A stretch of 20,000 bases of DNA from a bacterium (GTDB taxonomy: Bacteria > CLD3 > SB21), in the NCBI GenBank assembly GCA_013360215.1, contig JABWCP010000017.1, positions 45,359-65,358 on the forward strand, in the 5' to 3' direction. Shown here in pieces: positions 1,003 through 18,748 of the stretch; position 1 is the stretch's first letter; every line of letters begins with the position of its first letter. The position numbers and the translations under genes are program-made. Below the pieces are notes generated by a model. It searched no databases and was not told the DNA's origin. It worked only from the letters and a program-made list of their open reading frames with translations.

Positions 1003-2213
1003 TGTTTCTTCCGATTGCAGACCAGCTTGCAGTTATCAAACGTGGCATCGTTGACTTAATCCCAGAAGACGAACTTGTAAAAAAACTTGAGAATTCACTC
1101 AGAACCTCAAAACCGCTTAAAGTCAAATTAGGCTGTGATCCTTCACGTCCGGACTTACATATAGGCCATTCTGTGGTACTGAGGAAATTACGCCAATTTC
1201 AAGATCTTGGACATCAGGCGATATTGGTGATCGGTGATTTTACCGGTATGATCGGCGACCCAACAGGTAAAAATAAAACCAGACCATCGTTATCATTGGA
1301 AGAGACACGGCTTAACGGTAAATCGTACCTGGAGCAAGCGTCTAAGATTTTGGACGCCCAAAAAACAAAAATCGTATATAATTCTGACTGGTTGGGAGCC
1401 ATGAATTTTGCCGATGTGGTAAAATTGGCCAGTCGGTATACGGTAGCACGCATGTTGGAGCGAGATGACTTTGAAAACCGTTATCGTAGCGGAGAACCGA
1501 TCAGTATTCATGAGTTTTTATATCCATTAGCGCAAGGTATGGATTCGGTGGCCTTGGAAGCCGATGTGGAGTTGGGCGGTACAGATCAGAGATTCAATTT
1601 GTTGGTAGGCCGGGATTTGCAGCGCGAATACCAGCAGCAACAGCAGGTCATTATTACTATGCCGTTATTGGAGGGGACAGACGGCGTTCAAAAAATGAGC
1701 AAATCGTTAAATAATTATATCGGCATTGATGACTCGCCTAAAGAAATGTTTGGCCGGGCAATGTCTATTCCTGATGCTTTAATTTATAAATATTTTGAAT
1801 TAACGACGAATGTTGATGCAGGCGAGCTTCATAAAATAAAAACAGATTTGGACAGCGGTACAGTAAACCCATCGCACTTAAAACGACGCTTGGCTAAAGA
1901 ATTGATATCTATTTATCACGATGCCGGGCGTGCGCAAGCGGCGGAAGAAGAGTTTGATCTGATTTTCAAAAAGAAAGAAATCCCGGAAGACATTCCGGTT
2001 ATTTCATTGAACAAGGGCACGTGGATCATTTCAAAACTACTACTTGAATGTAAATTAGTTGAATCGGGCAAAGAAGCACAAAGACAAATTCAACAAGGTG
2101 CCGTGAATATTAATGGTGAAAAAATAACGGATGAACGTGCAGTTATCCAAATCGAATCGGAGCTTGTGATTAAGGTAGGTAAGAGAAAGTTTTTGAAAAT
2201 TATTCCGACTTAA
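1002..2213 (+). CDS. tyrS: Tyrosine--tRNA ligase
   Basis: KLGCDPSRPDLHIGH (HIGH motif), ELGGTDQRFN, KMSKS and a C-terminal S4-like domain (QGAVNINGEK...KVGKRKF). ATG at 1002 overlaps the kinase TGA, with GGAG at 993-996. Alternative TTG start at 999. Confidence 0.98.
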   Translation: MFLPIADQLAVIKRGIVDLIPEDELVKKLENSLRTSKPLKVKLGCDPSRPDLHIGHSVVLRKLRQFQDLGHQAILVIGDFTGMIGDPTGKNKTRPSLSLEETRLNGKSYLEQASKILDAQKTKIVYNSDWLGAMNFADVVKLASRYTVARMLERDDFENRYRSGEPISIHEFLYPLAQGMDSVALEADVELGGTDQRFNLLVGRDLQREYQQQQQVIITMPLLEGTDGVQKMSKSLNNYIGIDDSPKEMFGRAMSIPDALIYKYFELTTNVDAGELHKIKTDLDSGTVNPSHLKRRLAKELISIYHDAGRAQAAEEEFDLIFKKKEIPEDIPVISLNKGTWIISKLLLECKLVESGKEAQRQIQQGAVNINGEKITDERAVIQIESELVIKVGKRKFLKIIPT

Positions 2214-2216
2214 TCG

Positions 2217-2963
2217 TTAGTCTATAGCCGGAATATCTTGCGTATCCTCGTCTGGTTCTTTATTAGAAAATATTGCCACAAAACCCATCAGAATTCCATA
2301 GGCTATGAAAAGCATCATGACAGGAAACGCAACACGCTGAGGATAAATCAAAAAAGCAATAAAACAAACTATCAAAAGCCCAAGTTTGATGCGATCTTCG
2401 GTTTTCTGGAATGAAAAATTAGGCATGCCCTCGTAGCGAATTTTACTGACCATAAGAAACGATACAAGCAAAGTGATTGCAGCCATGACGATAATATGGT
2501 TGCAGGCCTGAAATACGTCTATTTCAAATGCTACAAAAGAGGCGATAGTAATAGCCGACGAGGGAATCGGTAAACCGGTAAAGAAACTGTCTTTTTCCGA
2601 ATGATCGGCGACGCCGACATTAAAACGTGCTAAACGGATTCCTCCGAAAACAAGTGGCATGAAGCTGATTAAAATCCCCCATATACCCCAAGGCTCAAAG
2701 TAAGCTTTGTAGATCAATACTGCAGGCGCAAATCCAAACGACGATACATCGGCGAGAGAATCTAATTCAACCCCAAATTCCGAACTCGACTTGGTGAGGC
2801 GTGCAACTTTACCGTCCAGTACATCCATGATGGCCGCAACGACAATCAGAGAGGCGGCTTCCATATAATCACCCCGAATGGAGCTGATGACAGAGAGGAA
2901 ACCGGCAAAAAGATTGAGCGCGGTTACAAGCGATGGCAGATGCCTTTTGGGCGAGGCTTTCAA
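2217..2963 (-). CDS. pssA: CDP-diacylglycerol--serine O-phosphatidyltransferase (membrane, CDP-alcohol phosphotransferase type)
   Basis: Signature DVLDGKVAR-x7-FGVELDSLAD, plus RLARFN and FTGLPIP. Multiple hydrophobic helices, adjacent to psd. TTG start with AGGGA 8 nt upstream. Confidence 0.95.
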   Translation of the reverse strand: MKASPKRHLPSLVTALNLFAGFLSVISSIRGDYMEAASLIVVAAIMDVLDGKVARLTKSSSEFGVELDSLADVSSFGFAPAVLIYKAYFEPWGIWGILISFMPLVFGGIRLARFNVGVADHSEKDSFFTGLPIPSSAITIASFVAFEIDVFQACNHIIVMAAITLLVSFLMVSKIRYEGMPNFSFQKTEDRIKLGLLIVCFIAFLIYPQRVAFPVMMLFIAYGILMGFVAIFSNKEPDEDTQDIPAID

Positions 2964-2978
2964 AAGATAAATCCCTGA

Positions 2979-3623
2979 TTACTTTATGATGCCGATTATG
3001 GTTTCTCCGGCCGTTGTCGTGTCACCGACTTTAACTTTGATGTCTACGTTTTTCGGAACGATAATGTCCATGCGGGAACCGAATTTCATAATCCCACAGC
3101 GTGTACCGCGATCAACACGGTCGCCTTGTTTTCCGTAAAACACTATTCGACGTGCAAGAAGGCCGGTTATTTGTTTGAATAGAATTTTTACACGTGGATG
3201 CTCTAGGCCGACGATGGTTTGCTCATTTAGCTCGGATGCTTTGTCATCAAAAGCTACCATGAACTTACCTTTCATATACTCATAAAAAGCGATTGTCCCA
3301 CCTAAAGGATAGCGATTGACGTGTACATTGAATACAGACAGAAAAATACTGATTTGTGTAGCCTCCGACTTGAGGTATTTATCTTCGCGAACATCGCGTA
3401 TCAAAACAACTTTGCCGTCTGCCGGGGCAATGATCGTATTGTCATCACCAGCGATTGTTCGTTCGGGATCACGAAAGAACCATAGTACGAGCAGTTCGAC
3501 TAAAAGCAACGCGATCACCAGTGCGATCCATCCGGAGCCCAGCGTAGCATACATGATGATTGCTATCGAAACGAGTATGTTTACGATGAAAATCGTTACA
3601 AGGCCTTCGCGCGATATTTTCAA
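2979..3623 (-). CDS. psd: Phosphatidylserine decarboxylase proenzyme (short PSD-A type)
   Basis: FFRDPER, APADGKV, IFLSVFNVHVNR and the self-cleavage site KFG|SRMD. N-terminal hydrophobic anchor. TTG start with GGAGA 7 nt upstream. Confidence 0.96.
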   Translation of the reverse strand: MKISREGLVTIFIVNILVSIAIIMYATLGSGWIALVIALLLVELLVLWFFRDPERTIAGDDNTIIAPADGKVVLIRDVREDKYLKSEATQISIFLSVFNVHVNRYPLGGTIAFYEYMKGKFMVAFDDKASELNEQTIVGLEHPRVKILFKQITGLLARRIVFYGKQGDRVDRGTRCGIMKFGSRMDIIVPKNVDIKVKVGDTTTAGETIIGIIK

Positions 3624-3637
3624 AGCAAAATCTCCGG

Positions 3638-4399
3638 TTAATCGTGAATGGTTGGTCGCTCATCCCGTGTTTTAGGATGCGTTATCGTTTGTCGTACCTC
3701 GCCATAAATTTTATGCAAATCATTTTCTTTAGCGGCGGCTATTTCCTTGTCAAATTTGCGGCCGCGGTTAATATCCCACAAACGGCAGGTATCTAAGGTC
3801 AATTCGTCAGCCAAATAGATCTTACCTTTTTGCCGGCCAAATTCAAGTTTGATGTCTACTAACTGAAAACCGCGACGTTCAAAGAAATTACGAACAATCG
3901 CGTTGACCTTACCGGAAAGCCTCTGGATCGTACGTACTTCATCCTGATTGGCCGAGCCGAACGCATACAGATGGTATTCGTTGACCATCGGGTTGCCCAT
4001 TTTATCATTTTTAAAATAAAATTCAATGATCGGAGCAGGTAAAGGGTCGCCATCGCTCATCTTAAAGTTTTTTGCGAAACTGCCGGCTGCGATATTCCGT
4101 ACCACGACATAAATAGGAATCATTTCAAGATTGCGTACCACGAGGGATTTGTCGTCGTATTTGCCGACGTAGTGCGTAGGGATATGATAGCTCTCAAGAA
4201 ATTGAAATACATACGATGTAAGCTCTGTATTAATCTGACCTTTCCCACGTGCTTTCATCACTTTTTTTGTATCCATAGGCACGAGATCATTTTTACATTC
4301 CATCAACAAATAATCAGGATTATTTGTTGAGTAGAATTTTTTAATCGTTCCTTCAAGAAATATTTTTTCTTTCTCGAGTTTCTTGATATTAACTTCCAA
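3638..4399 (-). CDS. purC: SAICAR synthetase (PurC)-family protein with a degenerate active site (possible pseudoenzyme)
   Basis: VVRNIAAGS, EFYFKND, LVDIKLEFG and LADE..DTCRLWD, directly downstream of purB. Start placed at TTG 4399, with AGGAGG (4405-4410) 5 nt upstream. The family call is secure but catalytic activity is doubtful (see findings). Confidence 0.88.
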   Translation of the reverse strand: MEVNIKKLEKEKIFLEGTIKKFYSTNNPDYLLMECKNDLVPMDTKKVMKARGKGQINTELTSYVFQFLESYHIPTHYVGKYDDKSLVVRNLEMIPIYVVVRNIAAGSFAKNFKMSDGDPLPAPIIEFYFKNDKMGNPMVNEYHLYAFGSANQDEVRTIQRLSGKVNAIVRNFFERRGFQLVDIKLEFGRQKGKIYLADELTLDTCRLWDINRGRKFDKEIAAAKENDLHKIYGEVRQTITHPKTRDERPTIHD

Positions 4400-4439
4400 A
4401 ATAACCTCCTGCGGATACCGCACTATACTTAAATTAATT

Positions 4440-5738
4440 CTATGATTTTATTCCTGCGCGTTCAAAAAGATACCCGATATGCTTCATACTATGCTTCAGA
4501 TCAAAACATTCATCTATTTCTTCCATCGATAGGCGCGATGTTACTTCCGCATTAGCCGTAATGGCTTTTTTGAAGTTACCATCCGGTGCTTCCCATACCG
4601 CCATGGCCGTCGTTTGAACGATTTTATACGCCTCTTCGCGTTTTAGTCCTTTTTTGGCAAGTGCCAGCAATACCGGTTGGCTAAAGATCAAACCTTTGGA
4701 ACGTTCAATATTGCGCATCATGTTTTCCGGGTACACGATGAGTTTATCAACGACGCGTATAAATTGTGTTAACATATAATCCAGCAAAATAGTGCTGTCA
4801 GGAATGATCACACGCTCGACGGAAGAGTGGGTAATATCTCTTTCATGCCACAGCGCCACGTTTTCCAGTGCCGCTTGAGCATTACCACGGAGAACGCGAG
4901 CCAATCCTGCGACACGTTCGCAGGTAATAGGATTACGTTTATGCGGCATCGCCGAAGATCCTTTTTGACCTTTAGAAAAATATTCTTCGGCTTCAAGAAC
5001 TTCTGTTCGCTGTAAACTGCGAATTTCAGTGGCAAATTTTTCCAAAGATGCACCGATGACGGCCAGTGTTGCAAGAAAATCGGCATGGAGGTCACGCGGC
5101 ACGACTTGCGTTGCATTGATTGGTTTTAAGCCAAGAAGCGAAGCTGTTTTCTCTTCAACGCGCGGATCCAAGTGCTCAAAGGTTCCTACGGCTCCGGATA
5201 TTTTGGCAACACTGATCGCTGCGACAGCACGTTTCAAACGCTCGGCATTGCGCGTCATTTCATCATACCACAGTGCCAGTTTTAAACCAAAAGTAACCGG
5301 TTCGGCGTGCACGCCGTGCGTACGTCCCATACATGGCGTCATCTTGAATTCTAATGCGCGGTGATGGAGTACTTCACGCAGTTGTTGGATATCCTGGAGC
5401 AAGATGTTTCCGGCTTCTCGAATCGTCAACGAAAGGGAAGTATCCAAAACATCGTTGGATGTCATACCAAGATGTATAAAACGCGAAGGTTCACCGACAT
5501 ATTCGGCGACGTTTGTAAGGAATGCAATCACGTCATGCTTGACTTCGGCTTCGATCTCCAAAACGCGTGCCGTATCAAAACGTGCACGGGATTTGATAGC
5601 GGCTAATGCATCGCCAGGTATATAACCCAAATCCGCTTGCGCTTCGCAAACGGCTATCTCCACGTCAAGCCATTTTTGAAATTTATTTTCGTCCGACCAG
5701 ATTTTTCCTAGCTCCGGGCGTGTATATCGTGTTATCAT
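4440..5738 (-). CDS. purB: Adenylosuccinate lyase
   Basis: MITRYTRPE N-terminus, KHDVIAF, GRTHGVHAEP, the fumarate-lyase signature GSSAMPHKRNP, and LWHERDITHSSVER. Confidence 0.98.
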   Translation of the reverse strand: MITRYTRPELGKIWSDENKFQKWLDVEIAVCEAQADLGYIPGDALAAIKSRARFDTARVLEIEAEVKHDVIAFLTNVAEYVGEPSRFIHLGMTSNDVLDTSLSLTIREAGNILLQDIQQLREVLHHRALEFKMTPCMGRTHGVHAEPVTFGLKLALWYDEMTRNAERLKRAVAAISVAKISGAVGTFEHLDPRVEEKTASLLGLKPINATQVVPRDLHADFLATLAVIGASLEKFATEIRSLQRTEVLEAEEYFSKGQKGSSAMPHKRNPITCERVAGLARVLRGNAQAALENVALWHERDITHSSVERVIIPDSTILLDYMLTQFIRVVDKLIVYPENMMRNIERSKGLIFSQPVLLALAKKGLKREEAYKIVQTTAMAVWEAPDGNFKKAITANAEVTSRLSMEEIDECFDLKHSMKHIGYLFERAGIKS

Positions 5739-5812
5739 GCGTTATGTTCATCCGGCAGTACTATGGGGTACCAAATTACTGCCGTCGTTTGCCTATCTGA
5801 ATTTTATCTAAA

Positions 5813-7312
5813 TTATTTAATTTCGTTTGCTTTTTTAAATGCGGCTTCGGCTTCACGTTTTTTCTGCAAATTAACATAGGCCGTACCAAGCATGATCCAT
5901 GTATTTGCATGGGAAGGGCGCAGCTCGGAGGCTTTTACCAAATACGGAATTGCTTTTTCAAAATAAGGCTTTTGTTTTTTAACTTTTTCAGCGTTGACGA
6001 GCGTGTAGTACAAATGACCCTCGATTTCCGCCTGATAATTGTACATTTTTCCGATACGGTAATTTGTTTCAGCCATTTCAAGTGTAGTCGGTAAACTGGC
6101 TTCCAATGATGCGATAGCATCAGCTATATCCGTGCGAACAATCTCGATGTCGGATTTGAGCGTCGTAGTGATTTTGTTCATGTCGGCACGGGCGCCGCCA
6201 TTTTTGTCAATCGTTTCAGTACGCTTACTTTGATAAGATTGATACGACTGTTCAGCTACTTGGAAATTTACAACCGGATCATCTTTACGCAGACTTTTGA
6301 CTTTACGAAATTGAGTGTTGGCTTTATCGAAATCTTTACGGTTATAGTATAGACGTCCGAGATTGAAATGTAAATCCGGGTTTTCCGGGTTTTTTTCTAA
6401 TGCTTTGGTATACACGGCAATGGCTTCATCCGCTTTACCTTGACGATCAAGCATAAGTGCCTTATCGCCGATGAGGGATGTCTGATATGCAACAGCTTGA
6501 CTATCTGGAGCGTTCATGGCTAAAGCGGTATCCATCCAAGCCATCATTTTTTCTTCATTATTTTCTTGTGTGTACAGACTTATAATGCTTGTGACAAATG
6601 AGAAATTAGCACGGTCAAGAGCATGCATTTTGGTAAGATATGATACGATGTCTTCCCGAATTGTTTTTTTATTAGTTTCTTCTTTTTCCATATTAAGAAG
6701 CTGAATATATACGGTAGCAATCGTTCCATAAACGCCTAAAGCATACGAACTCGGTACGTTATTGGCTGTAATGGTAACGGTAGGATCGATTTCAAGTAAT
6801 GATTTGAATTTTGAAATGGTTTTATGATACAAAACCTTTTGAGAATCCGGCGATGTAGCAGCCGCGGCAGCACGATAAGCTTGATTGCCTTGGTTATATG
6901 TTTTCAGTTTGACATCATTCATCATATCTTTGATGGAGAAAAGATCAACACCGCCTGAAACTTTTTCTCCTTTTTCGAAATATTTCTTACCGAAGGTTAA
7001 TGTTTTATTGCAATACTCCCATGCTTTAATCATATCATTCATACGATGATATACGGCGGCAGCATAGTAGTGTGTTTCTTCTTTTTCTTTATCATTTTTA
7101 TCAACTTGAGCATTGTTGACCAATAAAATTTCTAAAGCCTGTTGGTAATATTTATCTGCATCACCGGGCTCATTAGAAGCATTTTTCAGACGTTGTTTAA
7201 TGCCTGTAATAGATGCAGAATGGCTGATTTTCTTTTTTTCCTGCGCGAAAATTTGTTGACCTAAAATTAGACTAAGAAGAATCATCGCTGCGGATTTGAA
7301 TACCAGTTTCAT
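5813..7312 (-). CDS. Secreted/periplasmic tetratricopeptide-repeat protein
   Basis: Sec-type signal peptide (MKLVFKSAAMILLSLILGQQIFA|QE). TPR-like helices such as EAIAVYTKALEKNPENPDLHFNLGRLYY and TWIMLGTAYVNLQKKREAEAAFKKA. Confidence 0.85.
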   Translation of the reverse strand: MKLVFKSAAMILLSLILGQQIFAQEKKKISHSASITGIKQRLKNASNEPGDADKYYQQALEILLVNNAQVDKNDKEKEETHYYAAAVYHRMNDMIKAWEYCNKTLTFGKKYFEKGEKVSGGVDLFSIKDMMNDVKLKTYNQGNQAYRAAAAATSPDSQKVLYHKTISKFKSLLEIDPTVTITANNVPSSYALGVYGTIATVYIQLLNMEKEETNKKTIREDIVSYLTKMHALDRANFSFVTSIISLYTQENNEEKMMAWMDTALAMNAPDSQAVAYQTSLIGDKALMLDRQGKADEAIAVYTKALEKNPENPDLHFNLGRLYYNRKDFDKANTQFRKVKSLRKDDPVVNFQVAEQSYQSYQSKRTETIDKNGGARADMNKITTTLKSDIEIVRTDIADAIASLEASLPTTLEMAETNYRIGKMYNYQAEIEGHLYYTLVNAEKVKKQKPYFEKAIPYLVKASELRPSHANTWIMLGTAYVNLQKKREAEAAFKKANEIK

Positions 7313-7360
7313 TAGAAATCTCCAATCATTAGTGTGAATGAAACAATATTATTATTTGTG

Positions 7361-8386
7361 TCAATTGAAACAATAATCCGGGCCTCGGAATATTTGTTTC
7401 TCAGTTATTATAGCCGAAATCAATTCGGCCGGTGTTACATCAAATGCAGGGTTGTATACATGCACACCATGTGGTGCTGTTTGTTTTCCCATACCCATTG
7501 TTATTTCGTCAGCTGAGCGCTCTTCAATGGTTATTGCGCTTCCGTCAGGTATTTGTTTGTCAATCGTCGAATGCGGAGCGACGACATAAAATGGTATTTT
7601 ATGTTTTTCGCACAATACCGCTAAAGTATAAGTTCCGATTTTATTTGCCGCATCACCATTACGTGCAATTCGATCAGAACCAACGATTACAGCCTGAACG
7701 CGGCCTTTGGACATAAGCTGTCCCGCCATATTATCGCAAATCAATGTATGGCGTATATTCTCTTTTTTTAATTCCCAAGCCGTTAATCGGGCGCCTTGTA
7801 AAAGTGGTCGCGTTTCATCAACCCAAACGTGGATTCTTTTTCCGTTTTGGTGGGCTGTTACCAGTACACCAAGGGCTGTACCGAATCCTCCTGTTGCAAG
7901 TCCGCCGGTATTACAGTGAGTCAAAACCTGCATGCCGTCGTCTATGAGTTCGGAGCCTAATTTTCCCATCGCAATACATGCATCTAGCTCTTCTTGGAGG
8001 ATAAGGTGCGCTTCCTTAAGAACAGAAGATCGCAATATATCCGAGTTCGAAGCCGTGGAATAAACAGATTCGAAAACCTTTAGCACGCGATTGACGCCCC
8101 ACGCAAGATTAACGGCGGTTGGGCGACTTTGGATCAATTGCGCACCTGTTTTGATGGCTTCGTCGCGAAGTATGGCTTTATCTGAAGTGGTACAACGATA
8201 AAGTCCTAAGCACAAACCGTATGCACCGGCAATTCCTAACGCAGGAGCCCCGCGAATTTTCAATTTTTTAATTGCATCAATGAGATCATCCACATCGGCG
8301 ATTGTGAGATAAGTCTCATAAACCGGTAATTGGGTTTGATCAATGATGCGTACAGCGGGATGCGCCCACCGTATCGTTTCAATCAT
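7361..8386 (-). CDS. mtnA: S-methyl-5-thioribose-1-phosphate isomerase
   Basis: IIDQTQLP, IRGAPALG, SRPTAVNL, THCNTGGLAT, DETRPLLQGARLTAWEL, DRIARNGDAANKIGT and NPAFDVTP. Start moved to ATG 8386 (MIETIRW) because the longer ORF start lies inside the predicted promoter. Confidence 0.96.
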   Translation of the reverse strand: MIETIRWAHPAVRIIDQTQLPVYETYLTIADVDDLIDAIKKLKIRGAPALGIAGAYGLCLGLYRCTTSDKAILRDEAIKTGAQLIQSRPTAVNLAWGVNRVLKVFESVYSTASNSDILRSSVLKEAHLILQEELDACIAMGKLGSELIDDGMQVLTHCNTGGLATGGFGTALGVLVTAHQNGKRIHVWVDETRPLLQGARLTAWELKKENIRHTLICDNMAGQLMSKGRVQAVIVGSDRIARNGDAANKIGTYTLAVLCEKHKIPFYVVAPHSTIDKQIPDGSAITIEERSADEITMGMGKQTAPHGVHVYNPAFDVTPAELISAIITEKQIFRGPDYCFN

Positions 8387-8424
8387 ATTAAGTTTAACAA
8401 AAACAAAAACGTAATTCTGTCGCG

Positions 8425-8453
8425 AATATATTGGTTGTACCATAAAAAATCAA
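8425..8453 (-). promoter_or_regulatory. Putative sigma70-type promoter for mtnA
   Basis: Minus strand TTGATT (8453-8448) - 17 nt - TATATT (8430-8425). Confidence 0.6.
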
Positions 8454-8583
8454 GCAGTTTTACAATTTGCCAATCGTTATGATTAATGCCAATCTGACAT
8501 GGATCAACATATAATTGAGCGAGTAAACGGATAGAATATTAACAATGACAATAGAAGGGGGTATAAGGTTTGTTGTAAATAAA

Positions 8584-8958
8584 TTACAAAAGTCTAGCCA
8601 GAGTTTGGCCTAAGAGAACAAGTGCAAGCCCGCCCACAATGCTTCCGGCAATATAAAATATAGAAAAATAAAACTCCATCGTACGCATCATAAGTATGCT
8701 TTCGTATCCAAACGCTGAAAAAGTAGTGAAACCGCCGAGCAATCCTACAGTGATAAATAATCGGATTTGCGGATTAAATGCAGAACGTATTTCAGCGATC
8801 TCCATAATGAATCCTATAAAAAAACAACCGATGAGATTGACAATCAAAGTACCCAAAGGAAACAACAAACCGGAACGTTGTTGTATGACGTATTGAAGCC
8901 CATACCTTGCCATTGCACCCAGTGCGCCGCCTAATCCGATCAGGATAAATTGAGTCAT
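8584..8958 (-). CDS. crcB: Fluoride efflux channel Fluc/CrcB
   Basis: 124 aa with 4 hydrophobic helices. Motifs GGALGAMARY, GTLIVNLIGCF and GLLGGFTTFSAF. Confidence 0.97.
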   Translation of the reverse strand: MTQFILIGLGGALGAMARYGLQYVIQQRSGLLFPLGTLIVNLIGCFFIGFIMEIAEIRSAFNPQIRLFITVGLLGGFTTFSAFGYESILMMRTMEFYFSIFYIAGSIVGGLALVLLGQTLARLL

Positions 8959-16484: not shown

Positions 16485-17879
16485 TTAATCACATTGGGTG
16501 ATTTGTGTATCGGGTTCGATGGGTACGGGATATTTCCCGCTAAAGCAAGCTGTGCAGTAGTTGTGTGGGCCGTTGGGCACACACTCCAACATACCGTCAA
16601 GAGAAAGATACTCCAACGAATCGGCGCCGATACTTTTGCAGAGTGCATCTTTATTCATGGTATTGGCGATTAATTCTTCTTTGGTCGGGAAATCCATGCC
16701 ATAATAACATGGTGAAGTGACGGGCGGGGAACTGATACGAATGTGCACTTCTTTGGCCCCGGCTTTACGTATCATCGTAACCAAAGCTTTGAGCGTAGTG
16801 CCGCGCACGATCGAATCGTCAATGACGACAACACGGCGATCACGCAGAACGCCTTCTACCGCATTAAACTTTAATCGCACTTTCAGATCGCGCATAGACT
16901 GTACGGGATGAATGAAGGTACGGCCTACATAATGGTTGCGGATAAGACCGAGTTCAAATTTCAAACCCGTTCGGCGCGAATAGCCTACGGCTGCGGTATT
17001 GCTGGAGTCGGGTACACTGATCACGATATCCGCGTCCACACTGTGTTCCAGAGCGAGGCGTTTCCCGAGTTTGCGACGTGCTTTGTCCACATTATCGCCA
17101 AAAATTTTACTGTCTGGGCGAGAAAAATATACAAATTCAAAAATACAATGCGCGGGTGTGGGTAGCGGGTCAAAAATCATTCGAGTTTGCATACGGTCAC
17201 GGTCCACGACGATAAATTCGCCCGGCTTTACGTCACGCACATATTCGGCGCCGATGATATCCAGCGCGCAGGACTCACTTGCTATTACGGTAGCTTGGTC
17301 CAATTTACCGATACATAGCGGACGAATACCCCACGGATCACGTGCAGCAATAAGTTTGTCTTTAGTTATCAGAAGTAGCGAATATGCACCGCGAATCTGA
17401 TGCAATGCGGCGATAATTTGTTCTTCAACAGTGGCTTTACCGGAACGGGCAGCAAGATGAAGAATGACTTCGGTGTCGTTGTTTCCTTGAAGGATGGCCC
17501 CGTTATTTTGGAGTTCGCGACGAAGGCTTTGATAGTTGGTCAGGTTTCCGTTATGGGCGGCCGATATCGGCCCGGTGCTGATAATAGCTGTCAAAGGCTG
17601 TACGTTTTGCATAAAACTTCCACCGGTCGTTGAATACCGATTATGACCGATGGCCGAATGACCGGGTAAACGATCAAAAATTTTATCATCAGCGAATACG
17701 TCGCTGACTAATCCCATACCGACATGGCGATAGGTTCGTTCACCATCGGCCGATACGATGCCGGTGGACTCTTGTCCGCGATGTTGGAGGGAATACAAGC
17801 CAAAATAAGTCAGTCGTGATGCTTCAGGATGACCATAAATGCCAAACACACCGCATTCTTCTTTGATATCTTCTGACAT
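16485..17879 (-). CDS. purF: Amidophosphoribosyltransferase (propeptide, [4Fe-4S] type)
   Basis: MSEDIKEE|CGVFG (Ntn Cys after a propeptide), QHRGQES, GHNRYST, HNGNL and the PRPP motif VVVIDDSIVRGTT. Fe-S cysteines in HCIFE, PCYYG and YCTAC. The ORF-track extension to 18077 is not credible. Confidence 0.98.
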   Translation of the reverse strand: MSEDIKEECGVFGIYGHPEASRLTYFGLYSLQHRGQESTGIVSADGERTYRHVGMGLVSDVFADDKIFDRLPGHSAIGHNRYSTTGGSFMQNVQPLTAIISTGPISAAHNGNLTNYQSLRRELQNNGAILQGNNDTEVILHLAARSGKATVEEQIIAALHQIRGAYSLLLITKDKLIAARDPWGIRPLCIGKLDQATVIASESCALDIIGAEYVRDVKPGEFIVVDRDRMQTRMIFDPLPTPAHCIFEFVYFSRPDSKIFGDNVDKARRKLGKRLALEHSVDADIVISVPDSSNTAAVGYSRRTGLKFELGLIRNHYVGRTFIHPVQSMRDLKVRLKFNAVEGVLRDRRVVVIDDSIVRGTTLKALVTMIRKAGAKEVHIRISSPPVTSPCYYGMDFPTKEELIANTMNKDALCKSIGADSLEYLSLDGMLECVPNGPHNYCTACFSGKYPVPIEPDTQITQCD

Positions 17880-17931
17880 AGTGTTACTTAATAGATTTTT
17901 GAGAACATACTTAACACAATTCGTGCGGCGC

Positions 17932-17960
17932 AAGATAGAAAAAAAAAGGCATTCATCCAA
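17932..17960 (-). promoter_or_regulatory. Putative purF promoter
   Basis: Minus strand TTGGAT (17960-17955) - 17 nt containing T9 - TATCTT (17937-17932), followed by the GC-rich discriminator GCGCCGC. Confidence 0.6.
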
Positions 17961-18067
17961 TGTTTTTTGACGAATGTAACAATCATTATTCATGTAGAGA
18001 TTTTTATGTAAAGTTTGTATTTTATGTAAAATGGAACATGAATATGTTGATATTTCGGAGAATCGGC

Positions 18068-18748
18068 ATGCGTTCACCTAAACGGCTATTTCAGATACTT
18101 TCATTGTTATTGATTGCGGCGCTTACGGCGGTAATTTTTTTTATTCACCGTATTCATGACAAATCTAAACAGATTAGCGAAAATTGGTTGCCCAGCGTAA
18201 TGCATGTCGGTAACTTAAACACGCTCACTTCCGATTTTCGGATTATGGAGCTACAGCATATTTTGTCTACTTCGGACGAACAGATGCGTACGTATGAATC
18301 GGCTATGCAACGCATAGCCGATTTGATTAACTCGGAGATGAAACTGTATGAGCCTCTGATTACGACGCCCGTAGAAAAAACACTGTATGAGGATTTCTTG
18401 AGTAAGTGGTCTGAGTATATGAAGCATCATCTTGACATGCTTCAACTTTCCAAACTCAACAAAAACGAAGATGCGAAACTATTAATTCGTGCACGTTCGG
18501 AAGTTTTATTCAATGAGTATTCCTCTGCGCTTTCGGCGCTTGTGCGAGAAAATCGCAGAGCCGCCGACGATGAAGTCAAACGTGCTAACGCGTTATATAT
18601 TGGGTCGGTTATTAATTTAATTTTGATTTTAGGGTGTGTTGCGGTTTTTGTTATCATATCATTACGCCAGATGCGAAAAATCTTTGATCGCGTTTTATCT
18701 ACGGCAATGGATGTGGTAGCCAACGAGCGCGACGGGAAAAGCATATGA
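18068..18748 (+). CDS. Membrane protein with an MCP-type four-helix-bundle sensory domain and no cytoplasmic signalling domain
   Basis: TM1 (ILSLLLIAALTAVIFFI), a 4HB_MCP_1-like region (ISENWLPSV...DFRIMELQHIL...YEPLITTPVEKTLYEDF...W..Y), TM2, and a tail of about 27 aa. GGAG at 18057-18060 supports ATG 18068. Confidence 0.8.
   Translation: MRSPKRLFQILSLLLIAALTAVIFFIHRIHDKSKQISENWLPSVMHVGNLNTLTSDFRIMELQHILSTSDEQMRTYESAMQRIADLINSEMKLYEPLITTPVEKTLYEDFLSKWSEYMKHHLDMLQLSKLNKNEDAKLLIRARSEVLFNEYSSALSALVRENRRAADDEVKRANALYIGSVINLILILGCVAVFVIISLRQMRKIFDRVLSTAMDVVANERDGKSI

Follow-up and report, generated by a model that had tools for sequence, protein, structure and literature searches.

This analysis concerns a purC-like gene in a 20,000-nucleotide (nt) stretch of bacterial DNA (contig JABWCP010000017.1 of assembly GCA_013360215.1), referred to below as the window. 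The gene occupies positions 3638..4399 of the minus strand, with a TTG start and a stop codon at 3638-3640, and lies between purB and the phospholipid genes psd and pssA. Its 253-amino-acid (aa) product has the fold of short-form phosphoribosylaminoimidazole-succinocarboxamide (SAICAR) synthetase, as judged by Pfam, TIGR00081, and an AlphaFold2 (AF2) model, and is called here the PurC relic. The minus-strand frame is open from position 4423 (GTG, 261 aa), and the TTG at 4399 gives the 253-aa protein. An AGGAGG ribosome-binding site (4405..4410, minus strand), read directly from the sequence, stands 5 nt ahead of this TTG, and orthologues begin at the same point with ATG, GTG, or TTG. AGGAGG occurs twice in the window (3.4 copies expected by chance); the second copy is within mtnA, and the copy ahead of the relic is the only one positioned as a ribosome-binding site. 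An earlier, sequence-only reading had described an intact open reading frame (ORF) with the strongest Shine-Dalgarno sequence of the window, and both points hold. Residue n of Escherichia coli PurC corresponds to residue n+7 of the 253-aa protein and to n+15 in the 261-aa frame; substitutions are given below in E. coli numbering.

By fold and profile, the relic belongs to the PurC family. It scored 210.6 bits against Pfam SAICAR_synt (PF01259; cutoff, 20), with residues 15-235 covering profile positions 3-229 of 233. The AF2 model was confident (predicted local distance difference test score, 90.1; predicted template modeling [TM] score, 0.86), its top Foldseek matches were 2ywv and 3nua (TM scores of 0.92-0.93; E value, 1e-27), and only PurC clusters were among its matches in the ESM Atlas. 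Residues 10-221 aligned without gaps to residues 3-214 of E. coli PurC (2gqr_A), and a MAFFT alignment with the K-12 gene (NC_000913) concurred, as the earlier alignment by eye, with its offset of 15 in the longer frame, had proposed. Against the TIGR00081 equivalog model, the relic scored 180.3, under the cutoff of 189.9, and it fell far under the cutoff of each of the other NCBIfam PurC models. The proteins of four other loci (L003, 185.3; L011, 148.6; L012, 131; and L021, 58.5) likewise failed TIGR00081, while canonical short PurCs of the sister family f3, taken as controls, passed with scores of 223 and 228.

Relative to E. coli PurC, the relic carries the substitutions K11T, A12I, T32L, S33V, A34P, G35M, E90Y, D129N, F193L, S194T, P195L, D212E, and R215A and keeps K13, D36, R94, S100, K123, D125, D175, K177, E179, D191, D196, and R199. 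Every change and all 12 retained residues listed in the sequence-only reading were recovered. The relic retains 12 of 17 key positions. In a 228-row alignment of short PurC-like sequences, which consists of matches to two degenerate queries plus fetched loci and is not a random sample, 86 canonical rows keep 17/17 and all others between 2 and 14, which leaves the values 15 and 16 empty. Because of this gap, the difference between 12 and 17 positions is, at the level of sequence, one of class rather than noise. The TIGR00081 cutoff and the 17-position test split the two classes cleanly.

The roles of the changed residues can be read from the human enzyme. A quantum-chemical study of human PAICS (PMC9376930) describes Glu97 and Asp137 as ligands of MgB and MgC, of which MgC contacts the carboxylate and N3 of carboxyaminoimidazole ribonucleotide (CAIR) and MgB contacts the ATP gamma-phosphate; the same account has the aspartate substrate held by Thr40, Lys191, Lys228, and Arg232. 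By motif position, we infer that these residues map to E. coli E90, D129, S33, K177, K211, and R215, and the Mg2+ ligand role that the sequence-only reading had given to E90 and D129 agrees with this mapping. A review of archaeal purine genes (PMC3261824) gives the contacts of Ginder as Glu179 to ADP and Ser100, Arg94, Arg199, Asp175, and Arg215 to CAIR.

In the relic, the two Mg ligand positions are Tyr97 (codon at 4109..4111, minus strand) and Asn136 (3992..3994, minus strand), against Glu and Asp in 86/86 canonical rows; the acidic ligands are lost also in the alignment with canonical sequences. In the aspartate site, Val40 (4280..4282, minus strand) replaces S33, the counterpart of human Thr40 (PMC9376930), and Ala222 (3734..3736, minus strand) replaces R215, which contacts aspartate and CAIR; K184 and K218 (K177 and K211) are kept. 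The ATP/MgA site is present (K20, K130, E186, and D198 for K13, K123, E179, and D191), as are all five CAIR ribose-phosphate contacts (R94, S100, D175, D196, and R199). The relic would therefore be missing two of the four aspartate contacts and, for two of the three metals, both carboxylates. Given E90Y, D129N, S33V, and R215A, it most likely cannot make SAICAR, and we regard such synthesis as very unlikely. Although its fold and Pfam score are those of the family, its sequence argues that it should not be filed as a SAICAR synthetase, because the equivalog score falls short and the Mg ligands and aspartate site are not preserved.

Among 40 rows of the relic's clade, these columns behave differently from one another. 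D129 is kept in 0/40 rows (Asn in 68%), and the canonical Thr or Ser at position 33 is likewise found in 0/40. E90 survives in 10% of the rows, in a hypervariable column of Y/H/N/F/V/L/I/E, and R215 survives in 12%, in a column of A/K/R/H/Q/G. E179 and K13 are kept in 100%, R199 in 72%, D175 in 65%, and S100 in 50%. The loss of K11, which the sequence-only reading listed among the changes, is present in the relic (Thr18; codon at 4346..4348, minus strand) but is not a character of the clade, since this variable column still holds Lys in 45% of the rows. The same reading had suggested asking whether E90Y/D129N variants form a clade under purifying selection; the relic's clade is recovered with a support of 100, D129 is lost throughout it, and the E90 column varies.

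The relic is conserved, is under strong purifying selection, and is not decaying. A homologue search returned a tight group (P0002-P0030; 52-99% identity and 288-571 bits), the next match having 222 bits. An orthologue with an intact ORF is present in all 14 other genomes of the GTDB family, and an alignment of 27 orthologues (52-77% identity) has 49 invariant columns out of 253. By the Nei-Gojobori method, the synonymous rate (dS) was saturated for nearly all pairs, and L005/L015 gave the only usable ratio of the nonsynonymous rate (dN) to dS: 0.041 for the relic, compared with 0.049 for pssA, 0.062 for tyrS, 0.068 for purB, and 0.080 for psd. Of the 25 pairs listed, 24 had a purCL dS that was saturated or could not be computed, which leaves L005/L015 as the single pair with a ratio; some mtnA values were artifacts of partial matches. 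In the saturated pairs listed, relic dN was mostly no higher than that of the neighbors. In a strain from another study's RNA-library assembly, 12/12 differences in the relic were synonymous (17/19 in psd). The claim that the substitutions do not reflect random decay is therefore upheld: the clade is conserved, and the ratio is far from the value of about 1 that decay would give. Because the relic is kept under purifying selection as strong as that on purB despite the loss of catalytic residues, it appears to have a job that does not need the PurC reaction.

In the RNA libraries of two studies, contigs extend over much of the relic and across the relic/psd junction, which is a hint of expression; uncovered parts of such contigs (e.g., 4223-4576 in X15 and X16) are uninformative. 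We also observed that window positions 2217-5738 are nearly complete (share of sampled words, 0.75-1.00) in activated-sludge metagenome runs of several studies, with possible source runs excluded, and that a strain 95-99% alike to this region occurs in another study's RNA library.

The source genome (3.72 Mb, 100% complete) has two SAICAR_synt matches. The second (G000:C23:36992-37735), about 12 kb from the relic on the same contig, is a 297-aa long-form PurC that scored 428.7 bits on NF010568 (cutoff, 251), so that the second, canonical purC suggested as something to look for does exist, in the long form. In most genomes of the family (G008, G010, G012, G013, G014, G016, G017, G018, and the source genome), long-form purC and the relic are 12 to 21 kb apart on one contig. 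At locus L001, the first 4 nt of long-form purC are shared with the end of a 172-aa ORF, and further upstream is an ORF resembling, by eye, the 3' end of secA.

The neighbors of the relic from pssA to the mtnA-like gene are all on the minus strand. Upstream by 40 nt is purB (adenylosuccinate lyase; 4440..5738), with 554.7 bits on TIGR00928 (cutoff, 326.2). Downstream by 14 nt is psd (phosphatidylserine decarboxylase family; 2979..3623; 258.5 bits on NF003678; cutoff, 225), followed by pssA (CDP-diacylglycerol--serine O-phosphatidyltransferase; 2217..2963; 137.6 bits on TIGR00473; cutoff, 107). Further upstream are a TPR protein gene (5813..7312) and an mtnA-like gene of the IF-2B family (7361..8443), both separated by short gaps and recognized as conserved neighbors from Pfam and related loci. 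After pssA comes a convergent tyrS, with no purS-purQ at that place. In 13 fetched related loci, purB is upstream of the relic in 13/13; psd is downstream in 12/13, the 13th locus ending inside the relic; pssA is present in 11/13, the other two ending earlier; and the TPR gene and mtnA are found further upstream where contigs extend. TTG and GTG starts are unusually common here, with the relic, psd, pssA, and tyrS of the window all starting with TTG and psd doing so in 8 of 11 related loci. On the minus strand, at 16485-18077, is a purF-like gene (GATase_6/7 plus Pribosyltran); the de novo purine genes are thus scattered around this region and not gathered in one operon. Scans of positions 2000-8800 gave no signal beyond chance, with 15 promoter-like sites against 16.9 expected and 12 terminator-like sites against 7.1 expected (standard deviation, 3.7), none of the latter in minus-strand intergenic gaps.

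The same slot was followed across other genomes. The GTDB phylum of the source contains 20 species genomes, of which 16, including the source, carry the long form together with a degenerate short form. In two genomes, of family f3, this purB-purC-psd-pssA slot is filled by a canonical short PurC (275-279 bits on Pfam), which is their sole PurC. The remaining two are uninformative on loss: in G021 (85% complete), contig ends carry fragments of purB and psd, and G020 (same order, 98% complete) has neither purB, psd, nor PurC of either kind with the queries used, probably because the region of about 30 kb is unassembled, or else because the whole region was lost in this species. Of 161 sampled Bacteroidota genomes, 160 gave a PurC match and 6 gave two, in every case a long form plus a degenerate short form (56-122 bits) that adjoins psd-pssA. 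The canonical short form is the best match in 44 of the 161 genomes. From these 44, 18 loci, chosen among the top entries of the list and among long contigs, were fetched, and 4 of the 18 hold the full operon purB-purC-psd-pssA-purS-purQ with canonical purC.

Taken over the genomes checked, the slot holds canonical purC where there is no long form and a degenerate copy in 22/22 genomes with both, and the purB-purC-psd-pssA-purS-purQ slot is therefore ancestral. The conservation of purB-psd-pssA synteny, named in the sequence-only reading as a point to check, is confirmed as a pattern, but the arrangement goes back to an operon that is found with a working purC as well. The carriers of the mixed purine/phospholipid operon are the Bacteroidota loci L042, L043, L044, and L050 (genomes G074, G069, G084, and G089), and the shorter purB-purC-psd-pssA arrangement is seen at L038 and L039 (family f3); psd-pssA resemble an old insertion between purC and purS.

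Other non-canonical PurC paralogues came to light beside these. Locus L040 (3473-4525, plus strand; G024:C10) encodes a 350-aa divergent long-type PurC-like protein in a genome with a working PurC of the short form; it scored 85 bits on Pfam and 128 bits on NF009251 (cutoff, 371), has GKVS for GKxK, and keeps motifs like those of E90, K177, E179, D191, and R199. Further degenerate short PurC-like lineages with 6 to 14 of the 17 key positions include P0031, P0035-P0037, P0039, P0042, P0048, P0050, P0051, P0059, P0062, and L018, the last of which adjoins a purB 63% identical to that of the window. Going by these sequences, degenerate PurCs may be more widespread than the two groups examined here suggest.

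The second of those groups was found by a pattern-based locus search, which yielded six loci (L021-L026) from Ignavibacteria, Chlorobiaceae, and Bacteroidota metagenome-assembled genomes, in which psd-pssA are directly preceded by a PurC-like ORF that has degenerated much further. In this Ignavibacteria-type PurC, GKAK has become QPGR, and E90, R94, K123, D129, K177, E179, and D191 are lost. Both of the two genomes checked among these loci have a long-form PurC elsewhere. The gene order at L022 is relic-psd-pssA-purS-purQ, and at L021 purQ follows pssA. At least 91 proteins of the collection belong to this family, some of them labeled PurC and others "hypothetical protein". With the window relic, the Ignavibacteria-type proteins (L021-L026 and L065-L069) have in common a short PurC fold of about 253 aa, a place directly upstream of psd-pssA, a long-form PurC in the genome, and 13 to 15 of 15 lineage-typical residues (including H72, R160, K164, A167, R175, and R176). 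They differ in their Pfam scores (56-122 bits), a pocket that is nearly gone, the absence of purB upstream, and the retention of purS-purQ downstream, whereas the window relic has 12/17 key positions, purB upstream, and tyrS after pssA. Literature searches for a PurC pseudoenzyme or paralogue, or for an Ignavibacteria-type degenerate PurC, found no relevant paper. The present case adds another clade, less degenerate and from a different small phylum, along with canonical copies occupying that operon slot (family f3 and four Bacteroidota genomes) and direct evidence of purifying selection.

The full set of 15 residues common to both degenerate groups and rare in other canonical PurCs is S62, Y63, H72, P74, E126, E141, H143, Y145, R160, K164, A167, R175, R176, L185, and T204. 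We considered these as a possible new functional surface and rejected the idea. Canonical PurCs of f3 have 7 to 10 of them and Bacillota PurCs have 9 (the median of all canonical rows is 1.5), and we read them mainly as marks of lineage.

Maximum-likelihood trees (quick search, LG+C20 with posterior mean site frequencies) of 79 rows and 61 rows gave the window clade a support of 100 and the Ignavibacteria-type group a support of 99, with several other degenerate lineages forming an unresolved comb. The two groups were not sisters in the free trees. In approximately unbiased (AU) tests, holding the window clade together with the f3 canonical PurCs cost 13.9 log-likelihood units (p-AU, 0.23), holding it together with the Ignavibacteria-type group cost 1.5 (p-AU, 0.45), and holding all degenerate rows together with the operon-type canonical rows cost 16.8 (p-AU, 0.061); none of the three scenarios was rejected. 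Gene order favors a copy that degenerated within its slot, perhaps repeatedly; the sequence trees tend to favor a separate lineage of greater age. Fast-evolving sequences are prone to be drawn away from constrained relatives in trees.

We think it probable, with moderate confidence, that the relic is a non-catalytic protein kept for a role that depends on its fold or surface and that it probably still binds a ligand in its genus group. It would descend from a short-form purC that once worked in the purB-purC-psd-pssA-purS-purQ operon. The long-form PurC now about 12 kb away would have taken over SAICAR synthesis, and the resident short copy would have lost the MgB and MgC carboxylates (E90Y and D129N) and two of the four aspartate contacts (S33V and R215A) while staying folded, expressed, and under purifying selection for a role without the PurC reaction. 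The ATP/MgA site (K13, K123, E179, and D191) and the ribose-5-phosphate clamp (R94, R199, D175, and D196) are intact in the relic and the closest genera. Intact ATP and phosphoribosyl residues together with drifting E90 and R215 columns fit a protein in which ligand is bound but uncoupled from catalysis. As a guess, the relic may bind an adenine nucleotide or a phosphoribosyl purine intermediate without turnover and act through its surface on a partner.

Several observations weigh against this reading or narrow it. Sister genera of the same family or order (L011-L013) also lack D175, K177, R199, or S100, and the degenerate Ignavibacteria and Chlorobiaceae relatives have lost nearly the whole pocket. 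The sequence-only idea of lost chemistry with retained binding residues therefore describes the relic and its nearest genera but not these sister genera, and a function common to all of these groups, if there is one, could not rest on ligand binding, because they have lost pocket residues. About 6 of the 17 key positions reach at least 90% identity in the clade, compared with 73/253 columns overall, and these positions are thus not conserved above average. D129N could still hold a metal weakly, and an intact ATP/MgA site would suit a changed enzyme equally. Most Bacteroidota with a long-form PurC show no second match, so the relic is dispensable in many lineages. The RNA-library contigs may stem from contaminating DNA. 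In the trees, all canonical rows are on one side of a branch with Shimodaira-Hasegawa-like approximate likelihood ratio test support of 98 (79 rows) or 92 (61 rows), and the p-AU of 0.061 is borderline evidence against a simple in-place origin.

In an alternative reading, the relic could still be an ATP-dependent enzyme, a ligase or a kinase, with a different phosphoribosyl or carboxylate substrate, by a re-tooling like the one proposed for PenC-type PurC homologues of nucleoside-antibiotic clusters. PenC is a SAICAR-synthase homologue described as being of unclear function in the pentostatin cluster (PMC12648386). K13, K123, E179, D191, R94, R199, D175, and D196 are kept in the relic and its closest genera, and the strong purifying selection would suit an enzyme. 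However, the replacement columns at E90 and R215 are hypervariable instead of newly fixed, and further pocket residues are lost within the same family and order. The neighbors, moreover, are purB, psd, pssA, the TPR gene, and mtnA; Pfam scans of the picked window ORFs of at least 120 aa found no HisG-like, short-chain dehydrogenase/reductase (SDR), or other secondary-metabolite genes. We consider a changed reaction unlikely. That the relic is a weak, redundant isozyme of SAICAR synthetase is very unlikely: much of the active site survives, Asn can ligate metal, and purB adjoins, but E90 and D129, invariant in 86/86 canonical rows, are lost along with S33 and R215, the TIGR00081 score is under the equivalog cutoff, and the genome has a canonical PurC. 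A functionless gene in decay, kept only as part of a transcript, would account for the stepwise loss of catalytic residues across relatives and for the many long-form Bacteroidota with no second match. This reading is close to refuted, and we give it almost no credence, in view of the dN/dS of 0.041, the 12/12 synonymous strain differences, the intact ORF in all 14 other family genomes with orthologues at 52-77% identity, and the confidently predicted fold.

A more specific proposal is that the relic has a non-enzymatic job tied to psd and pssA, such as coupling nucleotide status to phosphatidylserine/phosphatidylethanolamine synthesis or assisting Psd. Of the old operon, just the relic-psd-pssA stretch survives in all degenerate lineages seen (12/13 loci of the window clade, the 13th ending inside the relic, and 11/11 Ignavibacteria/Chlorobiaceae/Bacteroidota loci), purB being retained in one group and purS-purQ in the other. 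The relic-psd gap is only 14 nt, and the junction is spanned by the RNA-library contigs. Yet the same adjacency occurs with fully canonical purC and is thus inherited gene order; since the operon exists with working purC, the psd-pssA link alone is no sign of a new function. When the relic was modeled in complex with soluble Psd (residues 48-214), both runs scored 0.00, which is evidence for neither side. We regard this role as improbable. Somewhat related is the conjecture, to which we attach a small chance, that the operon-type short PurC of Bacteroidota-like (Fibrobacteres-Chlorobi-Bacteroidetes [FCB]) bacteria has in general a second, non-enzymatic job linked to psd-pssA, such as reporting adenine-nucleotide or purine-intermediate status to membrane-lipid synthesis. 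If so, it would account for the dead copies that still head psd-pssA in two or more phyla once the long form has taken over SAICAR synthesis, and the window protein would represent an early stage, with the pocket present, and the Ignavibacteria proteins a late stage, with the pocket gone.

The preferred reading, a non-catalytic and selected relic, has consequences for annotation and for enzyme evolution. Databases label these degenerate proteins as working PurC, and metabolic reconstructions of these lineages may credit the wrong gene. The locus offers a clear natural case in which one form of an enzyme was replaced by another and the displaced gene was kept under strong selection and not deleted, and the canonical, half-degenerate, and fully degenerate copies in one operon slot form a series for studying the passage from enzyme to pseudoenzyme. 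As a binder of nucleotides or purine intermediates, if it is one, the relic would stand for a new type of metabolite-binding protein in bacteria, encoded between purine and phospholipid genes.

Among known systems, the relic is closest to short-form PurC itself (EC 6.3.2.6; Geobacillus 2YWV, Clostridium 3NUA, and E. coli 2GQR), which it resembles in fold, length class, sequence (31-41% identity, with the gapless E. coli alignment), its place in the purC slot beside purB, and the retention of ATP/MgA and ribose-phosphate residues. It differs from short-form PurC in the loss of E90, D129, S/T33, and R215, in its sub-cutoff TIGR00081 score, in the presence of a long-form PurC in the genome, and in conserved extensions at the N terminus, (M)EVNIKKLEK, and at the C terminus, HP(K/R)x(K/R)DEK, the latter in the closest genera. 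With the PenC-type homologues of the pentostatin/coformycin clusters, as these are described in PMC12648386, it shares membership in the PurC family and the expectation that SAICAR is not made; those clusters contain HisG-like and SDR genes, none of which are found by the relic, and it is by gene context that the two are told apart here. The relic also has the traits of the pseudoenzyme class, in which a dead paralogue stands beside a live enzyme: residue loss, from which its inactivity is predicted, purifying selection, and an active counterpart in the genome. The S-adenosylmethionine decarboxylase (AdoMetDC) prozyme of Trypanosoma brucei, as presented in PMC5201418, is of this kind. The active counterpart of the relic, however, belongs to a different (long) PurC subfamily, and such a relic is absent from most bacteria with a long-form PurC; like the prozyme, the relic appears to be a dead homologue of a metabolic enzyme, kept by selection beside an active counterpart.

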